This document shows, piece after piece, positions 1 to 18,470 of a DNA stretch of 64,000 nucleotides. The stretch spans positions 28,054-92,053 of the forward strand of contig MGMS01000009.1 of NCBI GenBank assembly GCA_001796515.1, written 5' to 3'. Origin of the DNA: Chloroflexi bacterium RBG_13_51_36 (GTDB lineage Bacteria > Chloroflexota > Dehalococcoidia > GIF9 > AB-539-J10). Positions within the stretch are counted from its first letter, which is position 1, and each line of letters begins with the position of its first letter. A program made the position numbers and the translations under genes. A model generated the notes under the pieces. It did no database searches. It was not told the origin of the DNA and was given only the letters and a program-made list of their open reading frames with translations.

Positions 1-216
1 TTCCTTTTCTCACACTAGGCAACGCCAATTTGCTTCGACTTTGAAACGTCAAGCGTGTGACCTGGCTGCAATTCTTGACATTTCTTCAAGCTGTTAGAAG
101 GTGATTGACATAATTGCTGAGTCATGCTAATATATGAACAGTAATATGCGTATCACATTTCATAATTATATATTGGTGCTTGGGTGATGTCAATGCATCA
201 ACGTCAGGAGGACTGA

Positions 217-507
217 TTGGAGAAAGGGTGGTGGGCTTTTCTCTCTAACCACGGGCGGGTGTTCGTATATATTACCAAACACCCGAAAAGCACGACGGAG
301 GTAATATCTCGGGAAGTAGGGCTTACCCAGAGGGGTGTCCAGAAAATAATCGGCGAACTTGAGGCGGGCGGGTATGTTACCCGGCGCAGGGAAGGCAGAT
401 GTAATGTCTATGCGGTCCGTCCCGAATTGCCGATGCGTCACAAGCTAGAGCGAGACCATGCCGTTGGAGACCTGCTGGTCGCGCTGGGATGCGAGCCCGA
501 GAAGTAG
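217..507 (+). CDS. winged-helix HTH transcriptional regulator (MarR/ArsR-like fold)
   Basis: 96-aa ORF. HTH-like segment 'EVISREVGLTQRGVQKIIGELEAGGYVTRRREGR' followed by a predicted wing. Sigma70-like TTGACA..TAATAT sits upstream (~105-140). Confidence 0.55.
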   Translation: MEKGWWAFLSNHGRVFVYITKHPKSTTEVISREVGLTQRGVQKIIGELEAGGYVTRRREGRCNVYAVRPELPMRHKLERDHAVGDLLVALGCEPEK

Positions 508-544
508 TGCTCCACTTAACATAGCCCGTTCTACACAGGAGGTC

Positions 545-581
545 AGAGGTTCAAATTCTCTACCGCCCACCATAGGTAGTT
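545..581 (+). other. orphan tRNA 3' fragment (T-arm + acceptor 3' strand + CCA); possible att remnant
   Basis: 'GGTCAGAGGTTCAAATTCTCTACCGCCCACCA' has a T-loop TTCAAAT with a 5-bp stem, a 7-nt acceptor strand, a discriminator and CCA. No matching 5' acceptor strand (GGGCGGT) or D-arm is present upstream. Confidence 0.35.
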
Positions 582-684
582 AGATTGCCTCGCAAGGTAT
601 GGTGGTGTTGTGTATAGGATCCTTTAGCCGCTGCTGGCTTTGAAGAACAGGATGCTATTCGAGAGGCATTGAGACTACTTCTGT

Positions 685-1074
685 CTAATGATGCTCTTCT
701 GCTTCAGCCTTGTCGGCCTCAGCCTTCGTCTTGTGCACAGTCTTGTCAGGATGGTTGGGAGGAGAATAGATTGTGTATAGCTTCACCTTAGCGGTCTTTG
801 AAGCGTTTGTTACACTATGGTACGTGCCCGCTGGCACTATGACGGCATCGCCATCTTTCACCACGTGTTTTTCCTTTCCTGCCAAAACAAATGTTGCCTC
901 ACCCTGCTCGATGCGGAAGAACTGGTCCACGTTTTTATGCACCTCGTTGCCAATTTCCTCCCCCGGTTTTAGGGTCATCACGACGAGCTGAGCGTGTTTT
1001 CCGGTAAACAATACTTTTCTGAAATACTCATTGTCCAGAGTCTGTTTCTCAATTGCGCCTACGTATCCTGCCAT
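685..1074 (-). CDS. cupin domain protein
   Basis: 129 aa. Cupin motifs '...G(X)5H.H...E' and 'PAGTYHSVTN'. Conserved small-barrel length. Confidence 0.7.
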   Translation of the reverse strand: MAGYVGAIEKQTLDNEYFRKVLFTGKHAQLVVMTLKPGEEIGNEVHKNVDQFFRIEQGEATFVLAGKEKHVVKDGDAVIVPAGTYHSVTNASKTAKVKLYTIYSPPNHPDKTVHKTKAEADKAEAEEHH

Positions 1075-1213
1075 CTTTGCGTTCTCCTCCTTTCCTTTGC
1101 TTCATATTATATAAGGCCGATAGGTCCCGGACAACTCGAAGCAACCCCAAAGGCACCTGACGCTCTCCGATTCCAGTAACTTGACTGGTTCGGCGCACCG
1201 GATGTTTTTTTGC

Positions 1214-1753
1214 CTAATCCATATGTTCGAATGTTTTTTGCGGAGGCACAGGTTCTTTCCCTGACAACACCATACCAAAGTGCTCCAGCTTCTGCTGTGT
1301 TCTGGGGTCCACATCGTGCCAGCGGGCCAGGAATTCCTCTTCCGTCAGCCATGTTCTGTGAAAAGATGACGGGTCTTCAAAAACAACAATATTGCCGGAG
1401 TGAGCAATAACAATCACGTAGTGGCCATCGTCGTTGTCCGACTTCCAATCTTCAAGGGTCATGTATCTTTCTGCCCACGCCTGCACCAGTACAATCACCG
1501 GACGGTTTCCATCCACCAAGCGTTTCACTTGATCCAGAGAAAACCCACATTGCGCGACGACCTTGAACCCTTGTGCTTCGGCCACAGATATCATATTTCG
1601 CACAGGGATTCCGTCAGCGTCGCATCTCAGTTCTTCTATCAGTTCGCCTTCCGGGATATCTATGCCGTAATAAGCCATGACAATCTGCAAGGCTTTCGCC
1701 CCACAGTCAAAATCAAATGTCTGTCTACCGGTCGGCAGTTCAATCATTGCCAT
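1214..1753 (-). CDS. C39-like (papain-fold) cysteine peptidase domain protein
   Basis: 179 aa. 'FDFDCGAKALQIVMAYYG' is the catalytic Cys-containing motif of Peptidase_C39_2-like proteins. 'DGHYVIVIAH' supplies the His. Confidence 0.55.
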   Translation of the reverse strand: MAMIELPTGRQTFDFDCGAKALQIVMAYYGIDIPEGELIEELRCDADGIPVRNMISVAEAQGFKVVAQCGFSLDQVKRLVDGNRPVIVLVQAWAERYMTLEDWKSDNDDGHYVIVIAHSGNIVVFEDPSSFHRTWLTEEEFLARWHDVDPRTQQKLEHFGMVLSGKEPVPPQKTFEHMD

Positions 1754-1998
1754 GGGCTCCGGCTGTGTACATATCGGCTGGAAGTCAGATAGCCTCGTTC
1801 ACAGAGCATTATGTCTTCAATTCCCGAACCTATCTTTGCGTATTATACATCCCAATAGGCGTTGTCGTCTCATCGAGGCGATGCAATAGACTGCTGCAGC
1901 GCCAGAATCAACCTCTTCTCGAACAAGAGTTTCGAAACGATTCGCCCAGGGCTTTGATTGATGACCGAACAATGTCGATGCTATATTCTGTCTAGGGA

Positions 1999-2439
1999 AT
2001 GCATGTGAACACTCGCCTGTTGAAGATAGGCATCCGTGTTTGGCTCGTTGACACCTTGATTGCCGCCTTCAACTTCTTCGTACTCATGAATCTTGTTTAC
2101 GAACCACGGTGGGGCCCTCTTGTAGCGCATCAAATCGGCATGTCTACCAGAATTGTCGTGACATTTGTCCTGGCATATTTCCTGCTCAGGTACGTCAAGC
2201 AGTACACTCGCAAAGGCTTGATTCTCATTGGATTGGTATGGTTGGGTCTCGAGGAAATATTCGAATGGGGAGGTAGCTTCATCCTCCGGCGATCGGTTGA
2301 AGAAATCCTGGTTGGCTGGAACATATTTGCGGGCTATATGTGGCCTTACGTAATGTTGGCGTATCTGCTGTCAAATCTGATTGTGGGTGTAACGCTACAC
2401 CCGGGCAAGAAGGAGGCGGTCCCAAAAGACATTCGATGA
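1999..2439 (+). CDS. hypothetical integral membrane protein
   Basis: 146 aa with 4 predicted hydrophobic helices and no recognisable motif. Confidence 0.4.
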   Translation: MHVNTRLLKIGIRVWLVDTLIAAFNFFVLMNLVYEPRWGPLVAHQIGMSTRIVVTFVLAYFLLRYVKQYTRKGLILIGLVWLGLEEIFEWGGSFILRRSVEEILVGWNIFAGYMWPYVMLAYLLSNLIVGVTLHPGKKEAVPKDIR

Positions 2440-2549
2440 GATTGGAGACAGCCTCTTGTCGTACATTGGCTGGAGCCAGCTCACTCTCTGGGAATTCCGA
2501 GCCTTGGCGATAGCGTGCAGAATCCTCTCAAATACTACTGCTCTGGCTC

Positions 2550-3923
2550 TCACGATACCAGCCGGATATGAACGGGGGCACGTTCGAAATCGGCCGCAGC
2601 GAGCAAAGCTTGCGGATGGAGTCCGGCCATAGCTGCCACAAATCGGTCGGGTATTATATCTAGCCTGGTGTTGTAGAAGGTAGCAATGTTATTGAAGTAG
2701 TCGCGCGCCAGGGCAATGCGCTGTTCCGTATCTGCCAGTGCGTGCTGGAGTTGCAGGAAAGATTCACTGGCTTTCAGTTCGGGATAACGCTCAACTATTA
2801 CGGCGAGCATCGGTGCGATTCCTTTAGGATCAGGTCCCGGTTCACCTGGCGGCGTTGTCTCTATCTGCCCGCGTATTTCCGCCAACAGCCTCTGTGTTTC
2901 GCTTTCGTGGGTGCGATATCCTTCTATGGTTCCTACCAGATTGGGAATCAGGTCGTGCCGTCGCTTAAGTTGTACATCAACCTGTGACCTGCCCTGACCG
3001 ACCATGTTACGGAGGTTGATTAGGCTGTTGTACGTAGTCCAAACCCAACCGAGTAGCATTGCGGCAATAAACGCGCCGGTCGCAATTGCAGGCGGTTGCC
3101 ATATGATGCTTCCCGTTTCGAGCACACTATAACCTATTGCACCTGCGATGACCGCCCCCAACCCCGGAATTGACCATAGCCAGAACGACAATGCGTACCT
3201 TCGGCTAACTTGCTTCTCCGTCCGGGTTGAAATCAAAAACATGGGCGCGTCCTTATCATGTGCCACTTCAGCAGCAACGATGTCCTCTCTCTCACGCGCC
3301 TGTCCCACGATATAGAGCATGGAATGTAGGGGCACCGCGGTCTCCAGGAAATGCCGTCTGTGAGTAGAATCAGCTACCTCGCTCGGCGGCCCTTTGCCAA
3401 AATAGACAGAACTACCTCTGGAGCAAGTCTGGTCAAGTACCTTGACACCATGGATAGTGGCGCCTTCAGGAACGATACGGATGACACCGGAATCGTCCCT
3501 CAAATAGAATGGGATAGCCTGACCGCCGCCGGCCACTCTGGTCCAGCCGCTCTCCGTGCGGGTGCGCCTCTGGGTGTGACCTTCGGAATCGGTATATGTC
3601 TCGACGACAGTCCTTGACCAGTGTTCATCGACTTGCCAAACATATTGTACGCAGCGAGTCTCAGCCAGATAACTGGTCAGAGGGTTCTCGGTTTCCGCCG
3701 TGCCCTGAAGCTCGACAAAACCGATAAATACGCCCTGCGCTTTCGAAGTCGGCACGTCATCGGTGAGGCGCTTCCGACGCAAAGCAAAAAAGGCTCCAAC
3801 CAGACACCCGAGGGATGCCAAAGAGCCGGCGAGCACCGATAACAGGCTATATGTCATGTCTTGATTGTGCGACGCAGATGAGCCTTTTGTCAAAGTGGGT
3901 GAGGGAGCTGCTGCATCTTTCAT
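2550..3923 (-). CDS. GIDE-like domain / LemA family fusion membrane protein
   Basis: 457 aa. N-terminal TM, then a GIDE-like region ('GVFIGFVELQGTAE...QYVWQVDEHW...'). A central TM pair precedes a C-terminal LemA signature ('YNSLINLRNMV...DVQLKRRHDLIPNLV...GYRTHE...'). Confidence 0.7.
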   Translation of the reverse strand: MKDAAAPSPTLTKGSSASHNQDMTYSLLSVLAGSLASLGCLVGAFFALRRKRLTDDVPTSKAQGVFIGFVELQGTAETENPLTSYLAETRCVQYVWQVDEHWSRTVVETYTDSEGHTQRRTRTESGWTRVAGGGQAIPFYLRDDSGVIRIVPEGATIHGVKVLDQTCSRGSSVYFGKGPPSEVADSTHRRHFLETAVPLHSMLYIVGQAREREDIVAAEVAHDKDAPMFLISTRTEKQVSRRYALSFWLWSIPGLGAVIAGAIGYSVLETGSIIWQPPAIATGAFIAAMLLGWVWTTYNSLINLRNMVGQGRSQVDVQLKRRHDLIPNLVGTIEGYRTHESETQRLLAEIRGQIETTPPGEPGPDPKGIAPMLAVIVERYPELKASESFLQLQHALADTEQRIALARDYFNNIATFYNTRLDIIPDRFVAAMAGLHPQALLAAADFERAPVHIRLVS

Positions 3924-4042
3924 AGCGGCGGAACCACCGGCTTATTCTCAAACAAGCGTCAGAATCTGTGTCGCGTGACCCATGATTGGCAATTGGATTA
4001 CAGATTTTCTCTAGAGTTCATAGCCCCTGGATGAAGTGCCTC

Positions 4043-4097
4043 TTGACAAAACTGTGGCCGAGTGTATAATAATATCTAGATATATCTAGATATTATT
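4043..4097 (+). promoter_or_regulatory. sigma70-like promoter (TTGACA-16-TATAAT) overlapped by a perfect 30-bp palindrome; putative PadR operator
   Basis: TTGACA at 4043-4048 and TATAAT at 4065-4070. 4068..4097 'AATAATATCTAGATATATCTAGATATTATT' equals its own reverse complement. It lies 39 bp upstream of the PadR start. Confidence 0.55.
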
Positions 4098-4135
4098 TAC
4101 GCCATATTGGTTAATGAGGCAGAAAGGAGGTTTAA

Positions 4136-4648
4136 ATGTTCAGAGGCCGCATATTTCACGAAGAGCGATTCTTTCGCGGGTCACGGAGAGGGGCTTCATT
4201 TCATAGAGGTGACCTCAAATACGTAATACTAGACCTGTTGAAGGACAGACCAAGACACGGTTATGACATTATTCGGGAGCTTGAGGAACTTTCCTACGGT
4301 TTTTATAAGCCGAGCCCCGGAGTCATCTATCCTACCCTCCAGATGCTGGAAGAGATGGGATATGCCAGCTCCACTGAGCAGGAAGGCAAAAGGATTTACT
4401 CTATTACGGAAGAGGGGCGCAAGTTTCTGGAGAATCAAAGTAATATCGCCGACGACGTGCGACGGCACATGAAACATAAGTGGGGTTTCAAGAATATTGG
4501 CAGGATGGTCAGAGTGATGGCAGAATATCATGCGCTCGAAGATTTGCTTGGCAAGGGCTTTCGCAGACTGGATTCCGACAAAGCGGAGCTGATTTGCGGA
4601 ATTCTCTCTCGGGCTTATAATGAGATCGAGTCTGTGCTACAAGAATAA
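4136..4648 (+). CDS. PadR family transcriptional regulator
   Basis: 170 aa. 'YVILDLLKDRPRHGYDIIRELEE...GVIYPTLQMLEEMGY' is the canonical PadR winged helix. RBS AAAGGAGG upstream. Confidence 0.8.
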   Translation: MFRGRIFHEERFFRGSRRGASFHRGDLKYVILDLLKDRPRHGYDIIRELEELSYGFYKPSPGVIYPTLQMLEEMGYASSTEQEGKRIYSITEEGRKFLENQSNIADDVRRHMKHKWGFKNIGRMVRVMAEYHALEDLLGKGFRRLDSDKAELICGILSRAYNEIESVLQE

Positions 4649-4665
4649 GACGAAGGAGGGCTAAA

Positions 4666-4866
4666 ATGGGTTACTTTAGAATATTGGCGGCGATACCCGG
4701 TTTCTTCCTGAGTTCGTTCTTCCTCATGCTTCTCTGGGGTCCTATTGCTGCCAGACTGGGTATCGGTGTGGATATTGACTATGTCACAGCCATGCTGATA
4801 AACATTACCCTCTGGATAGCGGTAGCTCCGCTGGCGGCGGTCGGCCGCAAAAAGATATGTGGTTGA
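4666..4866 (+). CDS. small membrane protein (co-transcribed with PadR)
   Basis: 66 aa, two TM helices. RBS GAAGGAGG 7 nt upstream, 17 nt after the PadR stop. Confidence 0.5.
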   Translation: MGYFRILAAIPGFFLSSFFLMLLWGPIAARLGIGVDIDYVTAMLINITLWIAVAPLAAVGRKKICG

Positions 4867-5165
4867 TTAGGACTGTGCCGTAAGCGCTTGGCTTGGCGGC
4901 GAGCGCGGCAAGCCTACATACACGAGGGCAGAGTTTTAACTCCTCTGCCGCCCGCCGCTCGCTGGGCCATGAAGTTTTCGCAGAAGCTGGCAACCGAGCC
5001 GCCGGAGAGGGCCATCTTCATAACGCCACTCTTGAAGGAAATGAGGTCTTGATAGGGAATTCGACAAAAGATATAATGCCCCCATAGCATGATGGGTTAC
5101 CTGGTCACCTGCCCCAGGCGTGGAGGGATTGCTTCCCAGGTAACGGCAACGCTGGAGGTGTTTAA

Positions 5166-11886: not shown

Positions 11887-12228
11887 TCAGTGCTGAGACC
11901 TGAACAGCCTATGCCACCATCTTTGCTTATGGGTATGCTTATGGGCTTCCAGGAGCAATAATCGTTCTTGGAGGAATTCTGCTTTAGCTTTCCAGTACCC
12001 GACTTCCTGGGATAGTTGCTCTATTCTGTTGATGAGGGGTTGGGCTGGCTGGCTGTCGTCTGATAAGGGCTTGCTGGGCAGGGGCAGGTCTTCGATAACA
12101 TAGGACTCCCCGAACTTGGTAGGGACCAACCTGGCCTTGAGCTTGCCGGACTTGATATAGCGGCGGATGGTGACTATGGAGACCCCTAATGCCTGAGCAG
12201 CCTCTCTCAGTGTATAACCACTCATCAA
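11887..12228 (-). CDS. excisionase/MerR-type HTH DNA-binding protein
   Basis: 'YTLREAAQALGVSIVTIRRYIKSGKLKA' is an excisionase-family HTH. It lies just outside the tRNA-Lys att repeat, so it may be a remnant of an older element. Confidence 0.55.
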   Translation of the reverse strand: MMSGYTLREAAQALGVSIVTIRRYIKSGKLKARLVPTKFGESYVIEDLPLPSKPLSDDSQPAQPLINRIEQLSQEVGYWKAKAEFLQERLLLLEAHKHTHKQRWWHRLFRSQH

Positions 12229-12320: not shown

Positions 12321-12362
12321 TGAGCCGTGCGAGACTCGAACTCGCGACACCCTGATTAAAAG
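12321..12362. repeat. attL: 42-bp direct repeat identical to tRNA-Lys 3' portion (17215..17256)
   Basis: 12321..12362 is identical to 17215..17256 across 42 bp. It covers the tRNA-Lys anticodon loop through the 3' end. The flanks diverge immediately on both sides. Confidence 0.85.
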
Positions 12363-12457
12363 ATACAAGAGATTTGTCCGTGAGCGTGAAAAGGGGTAAT
12401 CCCTGATACCTTTCTGTTGACAATTTAGCTGCGATTTGTACCGTTAGATACCTTCTG

Positions 12458-12504
12458 GTTTTTCGTGGTGGTGAAAAGTTCGTTAGCAAAAATGTTAGCA
12501 TCTC
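12458..12504. repeat. arm-like repeat copy A (TTTCGTGGTGGTGAAAAGTTCGTTAGCAAAAATGTTAGCA)
   Basis: Shares ~80% identity over ~38 bp with copy B (14817..14858). It shares a near-identical 20-bp 'CGTTAGCAAAA(A)TGTTAGCA' with copy C (17171..17193). It has an internal GTTAGCA direct repeat. Confidence 0.6.
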
Positions 12505-12506
12505 TA

Positions 12507-14714
12507 CTAGGATGTCAGAGGTAGCGGACCAATATTGGCATCGGTGTTGGTTGGAAGGTAGAGTTTGTTGAATCTAAGATTGTTTTCAACAACATCAATT
12601 TCGTCGTCTGAAAGACCGAGTAGTCTGTATATAGCCTGGTCGATAGCGTAGAAATGGCCAGCTATTCGAGCATTGTAATTATTGACGAACTCGACTTGGA
12701 CATGGGTGTTCTTTCTGACGTAGGATTTGTTGAACTCAGCAATGAACTTGTGTTCTTCTCTAATGATGTGGTCGAAGGTATCGTTAATTAAGGTGATTTG
12801 CTCTTGTGAATCGGGTCTATTCAGTGTGATTATAGGAAGGCGCAGGGTGCTGAAGACTCTAGGGTCCGTGAAGTCTGTAGTGCCATGTCTATTGAGCAGA
12901 TACCATAAGCAAAACGACGACTTGAGGAAGGCTACGAGGAATCTCATACCATAGAATGAAGTCAATGGTTCGGGATGTAGCTTCATAAGCGGGTGTCTAG
13001 CTATCTTACAATAGAAGGGGTAGTCGTACTTTGAGTAATAAATGGCACCTTGCGGGACAATGTAAATGGTTTCTTTCAATTTGGCCTTGGGGACAGGATG
13101 TTGGACGAGCCATAGAGGCAAGGTATGTCTCGAATATGCACGGTCTAGACGAGCTGGGGTAGTGTCTTGGATATAAAAGAGGTTGCCGCGAGCACAACCA
13201 ATTATATGTGGGAATTTTAGCAATCGTTGGAGCTGACTATCGTTTAAAGTGACAGGTTCAGGAATAACTGGTGTCGCCCTTATTTTGAAGCTATTCATTT
13301 CGAATTTCCGCAATACGGGTAGTGATACGGTGAGATTCTTTATTTGAAGACAGTCAGCTTCAACAGCTTGAAGTCGATTGACTATATTGGCCTGAACGTC
13401 TTTGAGGACGTTCTCTTGTACCAGTGATTCTATCTCAGAGGCAGAAAGAGTAACGATTTTGCTTTTGCGGATTGAATATATTGAAGGGTCGCCCTCTATA
13501 TTTACCAAGCTAGTTCCCTTGGTGAAATAGAGAGAGAGTATGAATCTTCTGTTTTGGAGTTCATAGTGTTTCACTTGTGGTATGTCCACAGAAAAGAATG
13601 GTTCAAGTTTACGGAGGTGAGGGAAAGCCGTATCGATAATATGTGAAATCTCGGTGACGATTGTGTTGTTTGCAGATGGGGATATGCCGACCTTGCTCTT
13701 ATTCTCTGTTAGTCCCAGGAGAATATAACCACCCGCAGAATTGTTTAGGGCACAGGTGAGTTTGAGAAAATATCGGATGTCATCTTCAGATTCGAGTTTT
13801 GTTATACCGAAGGAATTATTCAGTTCTGTAAGGTTATTCAATATTTTAGTAGTTGATGGTTGCTCTGTAAAGAATGACTCCAATGGATTTAGGAACGCTT
13901 TTCTGAGTGATTGAAAGGACGGGTCTTCAAGTTTTGCCCAGGTGAAGACGTTGCCAACATCTGAAGGAACATGCGCATCCGAGCATTTTAGAAATGCTAG
14001 TGGTCTTGTACGCTTATATTGAGGGGTCGATAATAACCTGACGATGTTGTCGCGCTGAGTCTCGCTTTTGTAGCAAACGCCAGATAATTGTTCGGACCGG
14101 AAGCAGTGAATTCTTTCTGCTCCCTTCAATTCCTGCCAAATACCTTTGTCGGAATCGGTATGAGCATCAATAAGGATGCAGTCGTGAGTTGTTGTTTTTT
14201 CGAGGAGAGTAACGATATCCCAGCTAGGCAGAATCGGTGATTCCGTCTTAGCCAAGTTCTCAGGTTTGTGGCCAGCGTCTGAAAGGAATTGCTCAATTGA
14301 CTGGGGATTAACCGAGGTGTTGAATATTAGAAGAATATGAATACCAGGCCTGACCGTGAGTTCTACGCCCGGAAGGACCAAAACACCTTCGAAGAGTGAT
14401 AATCTGGTTTTAATCTCTGCTAATCTCTTGTTTGCTTGTTGAGAGTCTGTGATTGTTGACAGGGATTGTTGTTCAAGCAACAACTTATCCTTGAGGGAGT
14501 TTATTTTCTTGTATCCCTCAATTGTATTGTGGTCCGTAACTGCAATAATTCTGATTTCCTTGGATTTCGCATTTTGAAGAATATCGTAATATTCCTGGTC
14601 ATTTGTGTCGCCGGTGTCGCGATTATAGCCTGAAGAGGCAGGCGTATGAACATGGAGGTCGACTCTTACAAAATCTTCTTTGGTATCGGTTTTGCTGGCC
14701 ATTTTGTTGCTCAC
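12507..14714 (-). CDS. PHP-domain phosphoesterase fused to Schlafen/AlbA_2-like domain; large uncharacterised cargo protein
   Basis: 735 aa. The N-terminal ~260 aa carry the PHP motifs 'VDLHVHTPASS', 'AVTDHNT', 'GVELT', 'IDAHTD' and 'CSDAHVP'. The middle 'KLTCALNNSAGGYILLGLTENKSKVGI' resembles the AlbA_2/Schlafen nucleic-acid-binding core. The C-terminal ~300 aa have no recognisable family. Confidence 0.8.
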   Translation of the reverse strand: MSNKMASKTDTKEDFVRVDLHVHTPASSGYNRDTGDTNDQEYYDILQNAKSKEIRIIAVTDHNTIEGYKKINSLKDKLLLEQQSLSTITDSQQANKRLAEIKTRLSLFEGVLVLPGVELTVRPGIHILLIFNTSVNPQSIEQFLSDAGHKPENLAKTESPILPSWDIVTLLEKTTTHDCILIDAHTDSDKGIWQELKGAERIHCFRSEQLSGVCYKSETQRDNIVRLLSTPQYKRTRPLAFLKCSDAHVPSDVGNVFTWAKLEDPSFQSLRKAFLNPLESFFTEQPSTTKILNNLTELNNSFGITKLESEDDIRYFLKLTCALNNSAGGYILLGLTENKSKVGISPSANNTIVTEISHIIDTAFPHLRKLEPFFSVDIPQVKHYELQNRRFILSLYFTKGTSLVNIEGDPSIYSIRKSKIVTLSASEIESLVQENVLKDVQANIVNRLQAVEADCLQIKNLTVSLPVLRKFEMNSFKIRATPVIPEPVTLNDSQLQRLLKFPHIIGCARGNLFYIQDTTPARLDRAYSRHTLPLWLVQHPVPKAKLKETIYIVPQGAIYYSKYDYPFYCKIARHPLMKLHPEPLTSFYGMRFLVAFLKSSFCLWYLLNRHGTTDFTDPRVFSTLRLPIITLNRPDSQEQITLINDTFDHIIREEHKFIAEFNKSYVRKNTHVQVEFVNNYNARIAGHFYAIDQAIYRLLGLSDDEIDVVENNLRFNKLYLPTNTDANIGPLPLTS

Positions 14715-14816
14715 CTCTCGTCAATAATTCTAATCGGTGATTATATCGCAAATTGGTGTTTTTGACTATTGATTTGTAAGTGGTATAGCTTGGGCTGGTA
14801 CCGATAGGTCAGTCTT

Positions 14817-14858
14817 CGTCTTTCGTGGTGAAAAGTGCGTTGGCAGAGATCTTGGCGG
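14817..14858. repeat. arm-like repeat copy B in divergent promoter region
   Basis: 'TTTCGTGGTGAAAAGTGCGTTGGCAGAGATCTTGGCG' lies between the PHP gene start (14714) and the LuxR gene start (14925). Confidence 0.55.
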
Positions 14859-14924
14859 AATGAGAGACTTGACAAATCATTAAGAATATGGTACTGTGGT
14901 ACTATATTTGCTAGGGTGTCAAAT

Positions 14925-15335
14925 ATGAATGAATATGGAATGAGTATAAATCCTCGGAGTAAATGGAGCAAAGACTCAAGGGAAGCAAAAGTATCTGTGA
15001 GAGAGCTGGAGATACTGATTTTGCACAGCGAAGGAAGGTCGAACGAGGAAATAGCTGAGACCCTTGATATTAAGTATCAGACTGTAAAGAACATGTTGTA
15101 CAGTCTGAACAAGAAGCTAGATGCAACAACCAATGCGCAGGCTATTATGAAAGCGATTTCAGAGGGTCTAGTGAGGGTGAATATACATAACAAGGATGAA
15201 AGGGACCTTGCCGAGAAGATAATGTGGGCTATACAAACCGATGTATTGGTGTCGAAGGAGGACGCGGGTCTAATAAACATAATAAAGAAGTGGAGAAGAG
15301 AGCGAAAGTCGAAGAGTGAACAAGGGGGTAAGTGA
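14925..15335 (+). CDS. LuxR/GerE-type HTH transcriptional regulator
   Basis: 'VSVRELEILILHSEGRSNEEIAETLDIKYQTVKNMLYSLNKKL' is the LuxR C-terminal HTH. Start placed at an in-frame internal ATG. Confidence 0.65.
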   Translation: MNEYGMSINPRSKWSKDSREAKVSVRELEILILHSEGRSNEEIAETLDIKYQTVKNMLYSLNKKLDATTNAQAIMKAISEGLVRVNIHNKDERDLAEKIMWAIQTDVLVSKEDAGLINIIKKWRRERKSKSEQGGK

Positions 15336-16204
15336 AAGGTGAGGGAATCATTGAGTCGGTGGAGCGAACAAGTAACGCGAGGCGATGCTGGCGAGGGCGG
15401 TGGCGGCAGCCACTCGCCCGCCCATCCTTCTTTCCTTGTCTTAATATGAATAATGTCAACGCTGAGCTTTGGAGAGCACAGAGTTTATTGGCATTGTGGG
15501 ACTTCCTGGAGTATAAAGGACGTATTGGTAGGACGCATGTGATTCTGCATAAGGTGAATGAGCCTTCACTTTTGAAGATTATGCCTACAAAGTGTAGAAG
15601 TAGATACTTTGATGATGGGCGGCTGTATATGTCAGGGAGAATCCGAATACGGCTTGGTAGATACCATAAGGTGCCAGGATTGATGGAAACGCTAACCTAT
15701 GATACGAAGAGAATTGGGAAGAGAGAGGCATGGGCTAGCTTTGGGCAAGATACCAGGCGGTTTCTAAATGGGGTAAACCAGTATAGAAAGAGAAGAGGCT
15801 GGCGAAGGTTACACTATTTGTGGGTTGTAGAAGTGCAGCGTGGGACCGGTTATCCGCATGTGCATATCTTCTTTCCGAACCTAAGGTGGCTGGCACCGCT
15901 TAAGGTTATCAACGGTAATTGGGGAGAAGGTAGGGCTAACGTTGAGAGTCCTAAGAAGATCAAGGTTAGTTGTGCGGCTTATGTTTCAAAGTACCTGCGC
16001 AAGATGGAGGGGTGGCTAGACCTTCACCTAGCCATGCTTTGGTGTGGCAAGTGCCGGATGTACGGCTTTTCCAGAGGCTTCTCGTGCAAGATTGGAAAGA
16101 GAGAATCGGAATGGCGGAGATGGCAAATTGTGGAAACTGGGGATCGTGAACGGTTGGAAAAGGTCCTTGAGGAGGGGGCATATGCAATTGAACAGGGGTG
16201 TTGA
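15332..16204 (+). CDS. HUH rolling-circle replication initiator (Rep)
   Basis: HUH motif 'YPHVHIFF' and catalytic Tyr motif 'AAYVSKYLRK'. The GTG at 15332 has RBS AAGGGGG 5 nt upstream. An alternative start is the ATG at 15446. Confidence 0.65.
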   Translation: MKGEGIIESVERTSNARRCWRGRWRQPLARPSFFPCLNMNNVNAELWRAQSLLALWDFLEYKGRIGRTHVILHKVNEPSLLKIMPTKCRSRYFDDGRLYMSGRIRIRLGRYHKVPGLMETLTYDTKRIGKREAWASFGQDTRRFLNGVNQYRKRRGWRRLHYLWVVEVQRGTGYPHVHIFFPNLRWLAPLKVINGNWGEGRANVESPKKIKVSCAAYVSKYLRKMEGWLDLHLAMLWCGKCRMYGFSRGFSCKIGKRESEWRRWQIVETGDRERLEKVLEEGAYAIEQGC

Positions 16205-16376
16205 TAACAGGCTGTGCATAACAGTGCCGGAAGCAGCGGAAATGCTCGGCATATCAAGGAATTCTGCCTATGAATTGGTGAAGCAAGGGAGATTTCCTGT
16301 GATAAGGTTTGGGAAAAGGCTTCTAATACCAAGATTGGCATTGGAGAAAATGCTGGAGAAAGGCGTCACGAAGTAG
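16182..16376 (+). CDS. excisionase-family HTH DNA-binding protein (Xis-like)
   Basis: 'ITVPEAAEMLGISRNSAYELVKQGRFPVIRFGKRLLIPRLALEKML' matches the excisionase HTH_17 pattern. The internal ATG at 16182 has a GGAGGGGG RBS. It overlaps the rep 3' end. Confidence 0.65.
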   Translation: MQLNRGVDNRLCITVPEAAEMLGISRNSAYELVKQGRFPVIRFGKRLLIPRLALEKMLEKGVTK

Positions 16377-16393
16377 GTCAAAGGAGGGCCGAA

Positions 16394-16885
16394 ATGGATG
16401 AAATGCTGGTTATTTGGACTGCGGTGAATGCGTCGGCAACAATAGCTATGGTGGTGGTGTTGTTTCGGACACTGAGAGGTACATTTGCACAAGTTAGGGC
16501 GATGCGACAGGCGCAGGAGTTGCAGGGACGTGCACATGAATTGCAGGGATTTGTGAAGGTTGCAGATTGGCTGCAAAGAGAAGAGGTTAGGAGAGCTAGA
16601 GGAAGAGTTTATGAGTTAGAGGATATAAAGTACAAGAGATGGGCTCGGGCAGACAGGGAAGAAGCTAGAGTCGTGTGCTACAACTTTGATGTTGTGGGGG
16701 ACATGTTAGACAGGAAACTGATAGATGAAGGTGTGTTGGATAAGTGGGGATGGACAATAAGTAGGTGTTGGGTAACAGTGGAACCGATGGTGAAAGAGGA
16801 GAGGGAGAAGAATCCGCGATTATTTGATCAGTTCGAGCGGCTGGCGGAGGTGGTGTATAAAGAATACACGAACAAGTTGAGGTAA
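16394..16885 (+). CDS. hypothetical protein with N-terminal TM helix (element-borne)
   Basis: 163 aa. Strong RBS AAAGGAGGG. No recognisable motifs. Confidence 0.45.
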   Translation: MDEMLVIWTAVNASATIAMVVVLFRTLRGTFAQVRAMRQAQELQGRAHELQGFVKVADWLQREEVRRARGRVYELEDIKYKRWARADREEARVVCYNFDVVGDMLDRKLIDEGVLDKWGWTISRCWVTVEPMVKEEREKNPRLFDQFERLAEVVYKEYTNKLR

Positions 16886-16899
16886 GAGGTGAGAAAGGC

Positions 16900-17190
16900 A
16901 TGAAAGGTCATATCTGTCAAAGAGCGAAAGGTAGCTGGACAATTGTTTATGATCTACCGATGGATGCTGTAACAGGTAAGCGGCGGCAGAAGTCGCAAAC
17001 GGTAAAGGGTACGAAAAGGGATGCTGAACGCGCCTTGCGTGAGGTACTGCTGTCACTTGAGCAGGGGTCATACGTTAAGCCCAACAAGATGACGTTAGGT
17101 GAATTGCTGAGGCAGCGGCGGAGAAGTTTGACAGGATTTTTGATGTGGATGAGGATGAAAAGTCATATGCGAACGTTAGCAAAATGTTAG
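16900..17190 (+). pseudogene. tyrosine integrase, N-terminal arm-binding/SAM-like fragment only (catalytic domain deleted)
   Basis: 'GSWTIVYDLPMDAVTGKRRQKSQTVKGTKRDAERALREVLLSLEQGSYVKPNKMTLGELL' is the typical phage-integrase N-terminus. The ORF stops after 96 aa, 24 bp before the tRNA-Lys 3' end. The stop codon lies inside repeat copy C. Confidence 0.6.
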
Positions 17191-17193
17191 CAG
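17171..17193. repeat. arm-like repeat copy C (CGTTAGCAAAATGTTAGCAGAT)
   Basis: Near-identical to 12481..12503. Located 22 bp from the attR/tRNA 3' end. Confidence 0.55.
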
Positions 17194-17214
17194 ATTCTGG
17201 TGATTTAGCTAGTG

Positions 17215-17287
17215 AGCCGTGCGAGACTCGAACTCGCGACACCCTGATTAAAAGTCAGGTGCTCTACCAACTGAGCTAACGGCCCAT
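17215..17287 (-). tRNA. tRNA-Lys (anticodon TTT)
   Basis: Reverse complement 'GGGCCGTTAGCTCAGTTGGTAGAGCACCTGACTTTTAATCAGGGTGTCGCGAGTTCGAGTCTCGCACGGCTCA'. Canonical D-loop, anticodon loop CTTTTAA and T-loop TTCGAGT. Acceptor stem has one G-U pair. No encoded CCA. Confidence 0.9.
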
Positions 17288-17310: not shown

Positions 17311-17586
17311 CTATTTTTCTACTGACAGAAGATTGGAGATGTAGATGGCGAAGGCAGGATGAATGTCGCAGACAAATCCCCCATCCACCGCCTCCACAGA
17401 GAAGGTTACCCTGTTGGGCTTTCTGAGAGGATCGCCAAATTTATTAAGCCCCGTTTCATCCCAGGGCATGTTGTGGCCCAAGATTTCCAGTAGACCCTTG
17501 ACGTCCCTCGGGTCTTCTACTATAACTTCGAAGGGGAGCTGATGTGCCAACCCTGCCAACTGGCTATTATTTAACTTTATCCTCAT
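17311..17586 (-). CDS. hypothetical protein
   Basis: 91-aa ORF between tRNA-Lys and the tRNA-Gly fragment. No motif recognised. Confidence 0.3.
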   Translation of the reverse strand: MRIKLNNSQLAGLAHQLPFEVIVEDPRDVKGLLEILGHNMPWDETGLNKFGDPLRKPNRVTFSVEAVDGGFVCDIHPAFAIYISNLLSVEK

Positions 17587-17625: not shown

Positions 17626-17668
17626 AGCGGGTGATGGGATTCGAACCCACGACGTCTTACTTGGGAAG
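17626..17668 (-). other. tRNA-Gly-like 3' fragment (anticodon loop to 3' end); att-type remnant
   Basis: Reverse complement 'CTTCCCAAGTAAGACGTCGTGGGTTCGAATCCCATCACCCGCT' has the CCC anticodon-loop half, a T-arm and an acceptor 3' strand. It has no 5' half or D-arm. It differs in T-arm and acceptor from the intact tRNA-Gly 730 bp away. Confidence 0.5.
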
Positions 17669-17920
17669 CGCATATTTGCAGGGAATGACTATTGACCTCC
17701 TAAGCCCCATAATTCATAGTATGTCAAAAATGGCGAAAATGTCAAGGCAAATGAGTGAGGGAGTGAAAACGTTAGAAGTCTCGGCTCATATCCCGTTTCG
17801 GAGACTTTATAGTGAGATGGTTTTAGTAGTATCGGAGGTTCTGAGCCCTGTATCGGAAGATTGTTGGTGAGTTTGACTCTGGGGCTGGTAGAGGTTACGA
17901 TAAGAGCAGGAAGAAAGAAC

Positions 17921-18319
17921 ATGGAATCTAGTGCTAATCGTAGGAGTGGGCTGCTTACCGCTGGTGGAGTACTGAGCATAATAGCAGGGGCATCTCAGAT
18001 AATCTTCGGACTGATAGTGCTGGGTTTAATGATAGGCTTTGCCATCTGGGGTGGATATAATCCTTTTCCACATATACCTTGGATGCCAGACAATCGGTTA
18101 GAGATTACGGTATATCCTTTGTTCCCAACGTGGCTCACTATTGTGGGAGTGCCTGCTCTAGCTTTAGGCATAGTGGCCATAATAGGCGGTATCTACGCCC
18201 TAAGAAGGAAGAGTTTTGGCTTGTCCTTAGCTGGGGCTATGTGCGCCCTGCCATCAGTCATTTTGGGAATACTGGCAGTTATCTTTGTATCACTGTCAAA
18301 GAAGGAATTTGAGGCATAG
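17921..18319 (+). CDS. hypothetical 4-TM membrane protein
   Basis: Start taken at 'MESSANRRSG'. Gly-rich TM helices. Sits between the tRNA-Gly fragment and the intact tRNA-Gly. Confidence 0.45.
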   Translation: MESSANRRSGLLTAGGVLSIIAGASQIIFGLIVLGLMIGFAIWGGYNPFPHIPWMPDNRLEITVYPLFPTWLTIVGVPALALGIVAIIGGIYALRRKSFGLSLAGAMCALPSVILGILAVIFVSLSKKEFEA

Positions 18320-18398
18320 AAATAGATGCGGAAGTGGCGGAATGGCAGGTGAAGCACTGGCGGTTGGCTGAGTGATTAGGATAGTTAGAAGGGAAGTG

Positions 18399-18470
18399 AG
18401 CGGGAGACGAGACTCGAACTCGCGACTCTCTGCTTGGGAAGCAGATGTTCTACCACTGAACTACTCCCGC
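18399..18470 (-). tRNA. tRNA-Gly (anticodon CCC)
   Basis: Reverse complement 'GCGGGAGTAGTTCAGTGGTAGAACATCTGCTTCCCAAGCAGAGAGTCGCGAGTTCGAGTCTCGTCTCCCGCT'. Anticodon stem TCTGC/GCAGA and loop TTCCCAA. Confidence 0.85.

Follow-up and report, generated by a model that had tools for sequence, protein, structure and literature searches.

Several described genetic systems bear on the locus examined here, a 4.9-kb insertion in the tRNA-Lys(TTT) gene of Chloroflexi bacterium RBG_13_51_36 (contig MGMS01000009.1), of which we analyzed a 64-kb stretch of DNA (hereinafter the window, to which all coordinates given without a locus number refer). In pSAM2, rep, xis and int form an operon that an activator switches on, rolling-circle replication copies the excised circle, and the attachment site attP lies directly after int (PMC2440964). 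The myxophage Mx8 carries attP within int itself, and integration creates a new 3′ end for the gene (PMC6070905; PMC4383910). Tandem integration with subsequent internal deletion has been described for the tycheposons (10.1101/2020.12.28.424599), and integrases of the SSV type are split on integration into N- and C-terminal halves that are non-functional (PMC5861418). The insertion resembles each of these in some respects and departs from each in others; together with about 90 related loci, it points to a family of very small (3.9–7.0 kb) integrative plasmid-like elements of Dehalococcoidia, of which it is very probably one copy.

The insertion is delimited by a 42-bp direct repeat (TGAGCCGTGCGAGACTCGAACTCGCGACACCCTGATTAAAAG), of which the window holds exactly two copies, at 12321–12362 and 17213–17254, identical at 42 of 42 positions; across 100 shuffles, searches that allowed up to 3 mismatches returned zero matches. 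A preliminary description of this DNA, made from the sequence alone, had recognized the exact duplication but set its right-hand copy at 17215–17256, two positions off. That copy covers the tRNA-Lys(TTT) gene (17212–17285, minus strand; ARAGORN; Rfam, 72.8 bits) from the anticodon loop to the 3′ end and constitutes attR, the tRNA-proximal core that still forms the 3′ part of the functional gene, whereas the left copy, attL, is the tRNA-distal core, a displaced duplicate of the 3′ 42 nucleotides (nt) of the tRNA. The DNA between the two has a GC content of 44.8%, as against ~52–55% in the flanks. We recovered the unoccupied counterpart of this site from contigs of other metagenomes (L100–L109), in which orf91 (encoding a protein of 91 amino acids [aa] at 17311–17586, and 93% identical in the contigs used to find the empty sites), tRNA-Lys(TTT), a gene with the helix-turn-helix (HTH) domain HTH_17 and an HdrD-like gene are contiguous without any insert. 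The window flanks 17755–17216 and 12362–11880 both align to L100, where they overlap by 39 nt corresponding to one core copy; as the flanks meet there at a single core, L100 represents the empty attB. The exact repeat, the overlap with the tRNA gene and the empty site together bear out the earlier proposal of an attL/attR-bounded element integrated in tRNA-Lys, including the relatives with an unoccupied site that were to be looked for, and the 4.9-kb stretch is an element inserted at tRNA-Lys.

The integrase gene is where this copy departs from its relatives. These encode a protein of 422–424 aa, directly after the excisionase (Xis) in nearly all loci, with arm-binding, SAM-like and catalytic domains (e.g., the 424-aa Int of L001, which matches a PHROG integrase at 3.8e-82); the frame of an intact int crosses the 3′ half of the tRNA gene in antisense and stops in its 5′ half. 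In the window, a tblastn search with the L001 protein recovered just residues 1–82 (16900–17175) and 367–424 (17103–17276), in different frames, and the native sequence, that of the arm-binding domain, stops at codon 72. DNA alignment to the intact int genes places the joint at the hexamer GAGGCA (17109–17114), which occurs twice in those genes, at codon ~71 (CTGAGGCAATGG) and codon ~370 (CAAGAGGCAGCGGCG); from these two occurrences we deduce a deletion between short direct repeats that removed ~895 bp of int and shifted the reading frame. By reference to the L001 protein, the deleted segment comprised the SAM-like and catalytic domains, including the arginine of GLRRGE, the HDLRHT motif and the tyrosine of LDLYGHV. 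What is left is an integrase pseudogene (16900–17279, plus strand; Arm-DNA-bind_4 by Pfam, and tblastn with the L001 Int), within which a 96-aa Arm-DNA-bind_4 ORF (open reading frame; 16900–17190, plus strand) runs out of frame past the joint and ends 22 nt before the tRNA, while the last ~55 int codons persist in the other frame (ORF 17145–17279) and continue via the att core into the tRNA. The preliminary description had thus been right that the integrase is truncated and its catalytic domain gone, but the gene was not simply cut off 24 bp from the tRNA, as that account had it: its 3′ end is retained at 17145–17279, and the lesion is internal. Its view that the element is immobilized likewise stands, the core-binding and catalytic domains being lost and residues 1–72 and ~367–424 being all that remains. 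No other integrase of the family was found by tblastn with the L001 Int in the 64-kb window, and this copy is stranded, able to move only with a related Int supplied in trans. Set against the Islander-type description of tRNA islands, the locus has an intact tRNA gene, a displaced 3′-fragment repeat and an unoccupied target in relatives; a working integrase gene inside the island, which also belongs to that description, is missing from the window and present in 36 of the 39 assessable Rep-bearing related loci, the other three being frameshifted and none showing the window-type deletion.

These loci, from Dehalococcoidia metagenome-assembled genomes and metagenomes, were gathered by way of Rep (from genomes, 10; from metagenomes, 80; by exact look-up, 3), and the ~90 of them have a common LuxR-Rep-Xis-Int order, within a full conserved arrangement that reads P′ arm, cargo slot, LuxR, Rep, Xis, a small variable slot, Int and core. 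Both att copies are present in 17 loci, where they lie 3.9–7.0 kb apart. The target is tRNA-Lys(TTT) in 16 loci, tRNA-Lys(CTT) in 14 and tRNA-Gln(CTG) in one, and five have no tRNA at the int end. Among the latter, the ends of the elements in L004 (6387–12888) and L012 (~116–5135) share only 15–17 nt (…CACCCTGATTAAAAG), which points to secondary sites and to a crossover in the anticodon-loop part of the core. In L001, L085, L098 and L030, one chromosomal site is home to different members, whose cargo differs as well. The Rep family is of modest size, amounting to 365 clusters at 50% identity and at least 250 at 90%, and a Rep only 34% identical to that of the window still sits within a GerE-Rep-HTH_17 block. 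The components are all of known kinds, and broken integrases are a commonplace of tRNA islands; the family itself is apparently undescribed, and in the literature we found no account of such a family, minimal at 4–7 kb and abundant in Dehalococcoidia, with a two-tyrosine (Y2) HUH Rep, an Mx8-like overlap of int and attP, a LuxR-headed module and a defense-type slot. Decay in other members takes other forms: Rep carries frameshifts and stops in L010 (9950–10715), int is frameshifted in L008 (11058–11129), L026 and L043, and int stumps with unrelated lesions lie on contigs of 12–93 kb (P0003, P0019, P0045 and P0067).

The Rep gene (15332–16204, plus strand; the likely start is the ATG at 15446) encodes a two-tyrosine HUH endonuclease of the REP_ORF2-G2P family. 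The window protein matches the Pfam model PF23343 at 48 bits (cut-off 27.8), the only Pfam match, with nothing from NCBIfam and no match to RepSA. It displays, in order, the three motifs that define two-tyrosine HUH proteins: motif I (uuTu) as TLTY (82–85), motif II (HUH) as PHVH (137–140) and motif III (YxxKY/YxxK) as YVSKYLRK (179–186). A multiple alignment of 82 homologs (25–62% identity) showed these to be nearly invariant at T84, P137-H138-x-H140 and Y179-x-x-K182-Y183-x-x-K186, all of which the window Rep retains. A structure model built with these 82 diverse homologs reached a predicted local distance difference test (pLDDT) score of 93 (one from a shallow alignment, at 36, was unusable); its best Foldseek matches, though weak, are all HUH Rep domains, and the modeled fold appears nearest to replicative and transposase Y2 HUH domains (Helitron, parvovirus NS1) and less near to relaxases. 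Motifs, Pfam family and fold matches agree with the earlier identification of an HUH rolling-circle Rep from HVHIFF and YVSKY, and by its modeled fold class we assign the protein to the Y2-HUH rolling-circle initiators. Sequence searches of the Protein Data Bank with Rep and with the cargo protein gave no matches. The one relative in PLSDB is a weak match from the Thermococcus prieurii plasmid pTP2, which we take to be related to pRT1. The Rep of pRT1 has been placed in Rep-Arvir (PMC13107129). Membership of the window Rep in Rep_trans or in the TATA-binding-protein-fold class Rep-Arvir is ruled out by the HUH and tyrosine motifs and by the fold matches.

Rep lies within a closely packed set of genes. 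The first is a LuxR/GerE HTH regulator (14835–15335, plus strand, the likely true start being the ATG at 14925; Pfam GerE, 4.5e-11), which is kept upstream of Rep in related loci and overlaps it. On the other side, the gene for an HTH_17 excisionase or recombination directionality factor (16182–16376, plus strand; Pfam, 1.4e-14; TIGR01764 ‘excise’, 44.5 bits against a cut-off of 28.8) overlaps the Rep stop codon and in relatives always stands between Rep and Int. Pfam and NCBIfam matches thus confirm the regulator, Rep and excisionase that had been noticed inside the element, with a single excisionase. The interval between Xis and Int is a second, smaller variable slot, taken up in the window by a DUF4760 membrane protein (16394–16885, plus strand; Pfam, 7.8e-9) and in relatives (L004, L005 and L009–L012) by DUF5677, 140-aa zinc-ribbon membrane proteins, a 170-aa membrane protein or unannotated proteins of 471–473 aa.

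The second Xis-like gene of the preliminary description, at 11887–12228, proved to belong to the chromosomal flank. It lies outside the repeat, adjoins tRNA-Lys in the element-free relatives, and its product scores 23.8 bits against the NCBIfam excisionase model, below the 28.8 cut-off; there is no homolog of it among the related elements. Its lack of homologs in related elements and its presence at the empty site led us to reject it as part of this or an older element. The gene encodes an HTH_17/MerR-like protein with a C-terminal coiled coil and is retained beside tRNA-Lys where no element is present. Standing next to an integration hotspot, it could have a far older mobile origin.

Both ends of the element carry pairs of a short motif. 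In the P′ arm (12363–12506, plus strand), whose sequence and length are conserved in relatives, GTTAGCA occurs at 12482–12488 and 12494–12500; a pair with this 12-nt spacing was found in 33 arms and in 32 of the 33 elements closes an arm of 155 nt, counted from the core up to and including the two sites. On the P side a pair with 11-nt spacing lies ~20–30 nt before the core, within the 3′ coding end of int (~38 loci); in the window it falls in the int 3′ remnant (P arm, 17175–17192, plus strand). Among the seven delimited elements, all have the P′ GTTAGCA pair at its fixed offset and six have the P pair as GTTA[GT]CA, with a mismatch in one site in L001. We infer that these pairs are the arm-type sites for the Arm-DNA-bind_4 integrase. 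Since int crosses the att core, the gene ends differently according to whether the element is integrated or excised: in the integrated form the protein would end in LIKSQVLYQLS, with its stop inside the tRNA, and in the excised circle predicted for the window it would end in LIKRYKRFVREREKG, the first 13 codons of the P′ arm completing the ORF. The corresponding family tail, LIKRY[KR]R[YF]VP..E.. followed by a stop, extends 9–14 codons into the P′ arm, with tail and stop conserved across 33 elements. Another short motif, GATTTAGCT (in the window, CAATTTAGCT), is shared by the P′ arm, where it occupies consensus positions ~70–80, and the P arm, where it adjoins the core (12425–12436 and 17202–17212). 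Many P′ arms also contain an 8-bp hairpin (AGGTGGTAC-TGTTTA-GTACCACCT), which the window arm lacks. This motif and the hairpin are possible Xis or host-factor sites, a terminator or an origin.

The slot between the P′ arm and LuxR measures 0.7–3.8 kb, and its content varies from element to element. In the window it holds a minus-strand gene (12507–14714) for a 735-aa protein with PHP and AlbA_2 (Schlafen-like) domains and an uncharacterized C-terminal half (Pfam PHP, PHP_C and SLFN_AlbA_2). The preliminary description had pictured a cargo gene kept on a crippled element, and this ORF is indeed intact; the ORF itself and the DUF4760 gene were both absent from its account. Its product matches the PADLOC Ppl profile at 1.2e-18, over residues 16–282 only and profile positions 8–247 of 894, NCBIfam TrlF at 1.8e-38 (133 bits against a cut-off of 350) and NCBIfam Ppl at 7e-25 (87 bits against a cut-off of 1000; residues 15–298 aligned), with no full-length match to the PHP-plus-ATPase Ppl protein. 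It has no homolog in the ~90 related loci and is unique to the lineage of the window. On these domain matches the gene is a likely candidate for an anti-phage function. Across the family, what is encoded by 59 cargo ORFs of 38 elements includes OLD/ABC-type ATPases (5; closest in PADLOC to NsnB, AriA, GajA and PtuA), RelA_SpoT (2), NACHT (2), HATPase_c_3 (2) and HNH domains, as well as GmrSD_N, HEPN, FRG, HD-CE, LRR and an Hsp70 substrate-binding domain fused to a pPIWI-associated nuclease domain. Judged by such domains, the slot mostly carries defense-type genes, with a defense function presumed.

Several loci bear signs of repeated integration. Just upstream of LuxR in the window, 14760–14857 (plus strand; GTGGTGAAAAGTGCGTTGGCAGAGATCTTGGC) repeats the end of the P′ arm in decayed form, recognized as a repeat (family D5, 81% over 32 nt) and by agreement with the arm consensus at 26 of 34 positions; the cargo gene is thereby bracketed by two P′ arm copies, which suggests its capture by tandem integration and deletion. 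Exact second P′ arm copies occur in L023, L024, L037, L044 and L048, each of which thus has two P′ arm site pairs. In L013 (1–230) and L085 (30–260), a junction of int 3′ end, core and P′ arm lies upstream of a complete element, an arrangement that fits tandem integration followed by internal deletion. In L013, moreover, a GTTAGC site marks the point where the P′ arm joins the int 3′ end and core of the following copy, a configuration suggestive of recombination between arm sites. A separate case of decay lies 350 bp from tRNA-Lys, where 17626–17672 is an exact 3′ part of the tRNA-Gly(CCC) found at that place in L001, L085 and L098; a different, complete tRNA-Gly(CCC) gene is located 773 bp beyond this fragment. 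The interval 17677–18470 contains just a 152-aa membrane ORF (17861–18319) and a 78-aa ORF called in sister contigs, and in L049 and L100 an element with an integrase of 385–387 aa occupies the tRNA-Gly interval. Given the tRNA-Gly fragment and the integrase element there in L049 and L100, we interpret 17677–18398 of the window as what is left of another integrative element, in a more advanced state of decay than the first.

Gene order, close packing with LuxR/Rep and Rep/Xis overlaps, and the precedent of pSAM2 lead us to propose a cycle of regulated excision, amplification and reintegration for intact members of the family. In such a cycle the LuxR-type regulator would stand first in the compact LuxR-Rep-Xis-(small variable gene)-Int block and presumably control it; the 424-aa heterobivalent tyrosine Int would bind the tandem GTTAGCA sites of both arms and recombine the attP core, equivalent to tRNA-Lys from the anticodon loop to the 3′ end, with the chromosomal attB; and the HTH_17 Xis would direct excision. 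After excision by Int and Xis, the two-tyrosine HUH Rep would copy the excised circle by rolling circle, and the amplified form would re-enter tRNA-Lys. The window copy, in which the att cores, all four arm sites, Xis, Rep with all its catalytic residues, LuxR and the cargo are intact, now serves in effect as a fixed carrier of its cargo gene.

A number of observations weigh against this picture. We detected no circular (attP) form among the related contigs: L011 breaks in the core, its contig starting with 30 nt of core, which we read as the break that a repeat would cause in a k=31 assembly graph, and the int-core-P′ arm junctions of L013 and L085 are equally explained by tandem copies. For the Int tail of the excised form, codon-position entropy (0.66/0.48/0.72; control, 0.68/0.73/0.76) gives a weak sign of coding. 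We identified neither an origin of replication nor a nick site, and scans for promoters and terminators did not rise above background. The defense labels of the cargo rest on domain matches, and the window protein matches Ppl and TrlF N-terminally and far below the family cut-offs. An integrase acting in trans may be encoded elsewhere in the genome, beyond the 64 kb covered. Finally, no transfer or packaging gene is present in the element; a helper phage, a helper conjugative element, vesicles and transformation are all open as routes from cell to cell.

This last point invites two other views of how such elements live. Similarly organized tycheposons have been found in viral particles (10.1101/2020.12.28.424599), and the family could comprise minimal phage satellites, like phage-inducible chromosomal islands, their minimalist counterparts (PICMIs) or tycheposons, that are induced and amplified by means of Int, Xis and Rep once a helper infects, packaged in its capsids and furnished with cargo that interferes with competing phages, the window copy being a dead satellite. 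Their size of 4–7 kb, the int-xis-rep core and the defense-like cargo would suit this, as would the lack of a conjugation or transfer gene in any element examined and the fact that PF23343, the family of Rep, is named for initiators of single-stranded DNA phages. Yet relatives of Rep are absent from the IMG/VR viral contigs and from 50,697 phage records, its match to PHROG is weak (6e-4), no terminase, capsid or packaging-signal gene was recognized, and no helper phage is known; we consider a satellite unlikely. The other view makes the family integrative mobilizable elements, with replication secondary. HUH Rep-type proteins act as relaxases in some such elements, and the members of the present family bring their own integration and excision functions and no transfer apparatus. 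Against this, no coupling protein, type IV secretion gene or FtsK-like translocase was found in the window element or the inspected flanks of relatives, the modeled fold of Rep lies closer to replicative and transposase Y2 HUH domains than to relaxases, and we know of no conjugative systems in Dehalococcoidia, all of which renders mobilization as the primary habit very improbable. An integrative plasmid-like element remains the reading we favor, with high confidence.

The broken integrase can likewise be explained in more than one way. The source being a metagenome-assembled genome, the repeat and the truncated gene might be artifacts of assembly, but the occupied locus, including the int lesion, recurs in independent assemblies (L014, 99.7% over 5.9 kb; L016, 99.1%), and the junction with its neighboring genes is reproduced in separate samples at 99–100% in L014, L016 and L017 and at 91% in L015. 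As independent assemblies repeat the locus, an artifact is excluded for practical purposes. A split of the SSV type, with attP inside the gene and the C-terminal part at the opposite end of the element, would account for an int ORF that crosses the att core and for the short lengths (54–159 aa) of all 80 database homologs of the 96-aa fragment. That search returned no longer protein despite the many 424-aa relatives, and its list is apparently length-biased; the short matches are contig-end fragments and products of other lesions. Integrated relatives have an uninterrupted int of 422–424 aa in which merely the last ~12 codons lie past the crossover region, and no int-like ORF is found beside the other repeat in the window. 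The full-length genes of related loci, with the lesions and contig ends among the short matches, rule out this explanation too, to which we assign almost no probability.

A further explanation holds that the stump is itself of use. In this scenario the 96-aa product (72 native residues plus the tail) is a retained arm-binding protein of a domesticated element, occupying the GTTAGCA sites, for instance to keep incoming relatives from integrating or excising or to control the module. The identical GAGGCA joint is present in L015 (1128–1504, reverse strand), a lineage whose flank genes have diverged from those of the window by ~6%; int codons 1–73 differ between the two by 28 synonymous and 10 nonsynonymous changes, with a ratio of nonsynonymous to synonymous rates (dN/dS) of 0.06; and all four arm sites are intact. 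But the proportion of synonymous differences (pS) in this part of int is 0.55, above the 0.15–0.27 of the chromosomal flank genes, from which it follows that most of the purifying selection probably predates the lesion and acted on still-intact genes in separate elements. Moreover, the interior of L015 belongs to a different family member (with another LuxR type and no Rep), the out-of-frame tail is not conserved (P0002 ends earlier), and other members have unrelated lesions of the kind expected from decay. For the L015 joint three readings remain: an old deletion with the interior exchanged later, the same deletion arising twice, or selection on the arm-binding stump. We regard a retained function of the stump as doubtful, and a still broader scenario built on it as a long shot, namely that undescribed minimal self-replicating ‘gene shuttles’ bring single defense genes to the tRNA-Lys of Dehalococcoidia and that the window copy has been domesticated, its stump selected or the GAGGCA deletion recurrent, and the locus locked against relatives.

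Dehalococcoidia are abundant, slow-growing and genetically intractable bacteria of the subsurface and of bioremediation settings, for which we know of no plasmid, shuttle vector or integration vector. A member of this family would offer an attP/Int/Xis system for tRNA-Lys together with a rolling-circle replicon in less than 4 kb of conserved DNA, and hence possible parts for genetic tools. The loci also suggest a picture of gene flow in which single defense genes arrive in a tRNA gene, accumulate via tandem copies and, once the recombinase is lost, become fixed in streamlined genomes. Taken by itself, the window copy is nothing out of the ordinary: an island left stranded when its integrase broke.

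Described systems can be compared at several levels. At that of the cargo, the window protein shares the N-terminal PHP phosphoesterase domain with Ppl and TrlF and differs from them in matching over residues ~15–290 only, with AlbA_2 and the C-terminal half in place of the AAA-like ATPase part. The pSSV/pRN type to which the preliminary description had likened the element is not a valid parallel; nearer ones are the rep-xis-int-attP module of pSAM2-type elements (PMC2440964) and the placing of attP in the 3′ end of int in Mx8 (PMC6070905). The SSV and pRN elements of Sulfolobales are likewise small, integrative and extrachromosomal, target tRNA genes and have att inside the int ORF; they are archaeal systems, and the SSV int splits on integration, whereas the integrated relatives here keep a whole 424-aa int, and in neither the window nor the relatives do N- and C-terminal parts of int lie at opposite ends. 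Nor, to our knowledge, are pRN replicases HUH rolling-circle initiators. With Mx8 the family shares an int whose 3′ coding end contains the att core and, as predicted from the reading frames, alternative C-termini according to state, but Mx8 is a 49-kb tailed phage.

The cargo-carrying tycheposons of Prochlorococcus are likewise small and target tRNA genes; they too combine a tyrosine recombinase and an excisionase with a compact replication module, and their adaptive or defense cargo varies. Tycheposons also form tandem arrays and degraded remnants that leave cargo at tRNA ‘seeds’ (10.1101/2020.12.28.424599), and comparable signs here are the tandem and solo remnants in L013 and L085, the duplicated arms (L023, L024 and others, and 14760–14857 of the window) and the tRNA-Gly remnant. 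The differences lie in replication, which depends on a HUH Rep here and on the hallmark primase, helicase and polymerase genes there; in int, which in the present family stands at one end, with the replication module beside it, and is transcribed outward toward the tRNA, as against inward there; and in the phylum of the host. The AICEs (actinomycete integrative and conjugative elements) of the pSAM2 type are larger, at 9–24 kb, and encode FtsK-like transfer, spread, Kor/Pra and Nudix Pif functions, of which Pfam found no domain in the six ORFs of the window element, whereas the present family spans 3.9–7.0 kb and has a defense-type slot; RepSA there is replaced by PF23343 here, Actinobacteria by Dehalococcoidia, and the regulator here is of the LuxR/GerE type. 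Both kinds of element nevertheless rely on a tyrosine integrase to enter a tRNA gene at its 3′ part, both use an HUH-type rolling-circle initiator, for the excised form in AICEs (PMC2440964) and, as we suppose, here, and decayed copies that lack parts of the module are common among AICEs as well. As in these, the window and its relatives have a rep-xis-int block, regulator-controlled in AICEs and headed by a LuxR-type gene here, next to attP in a tRNA gene.

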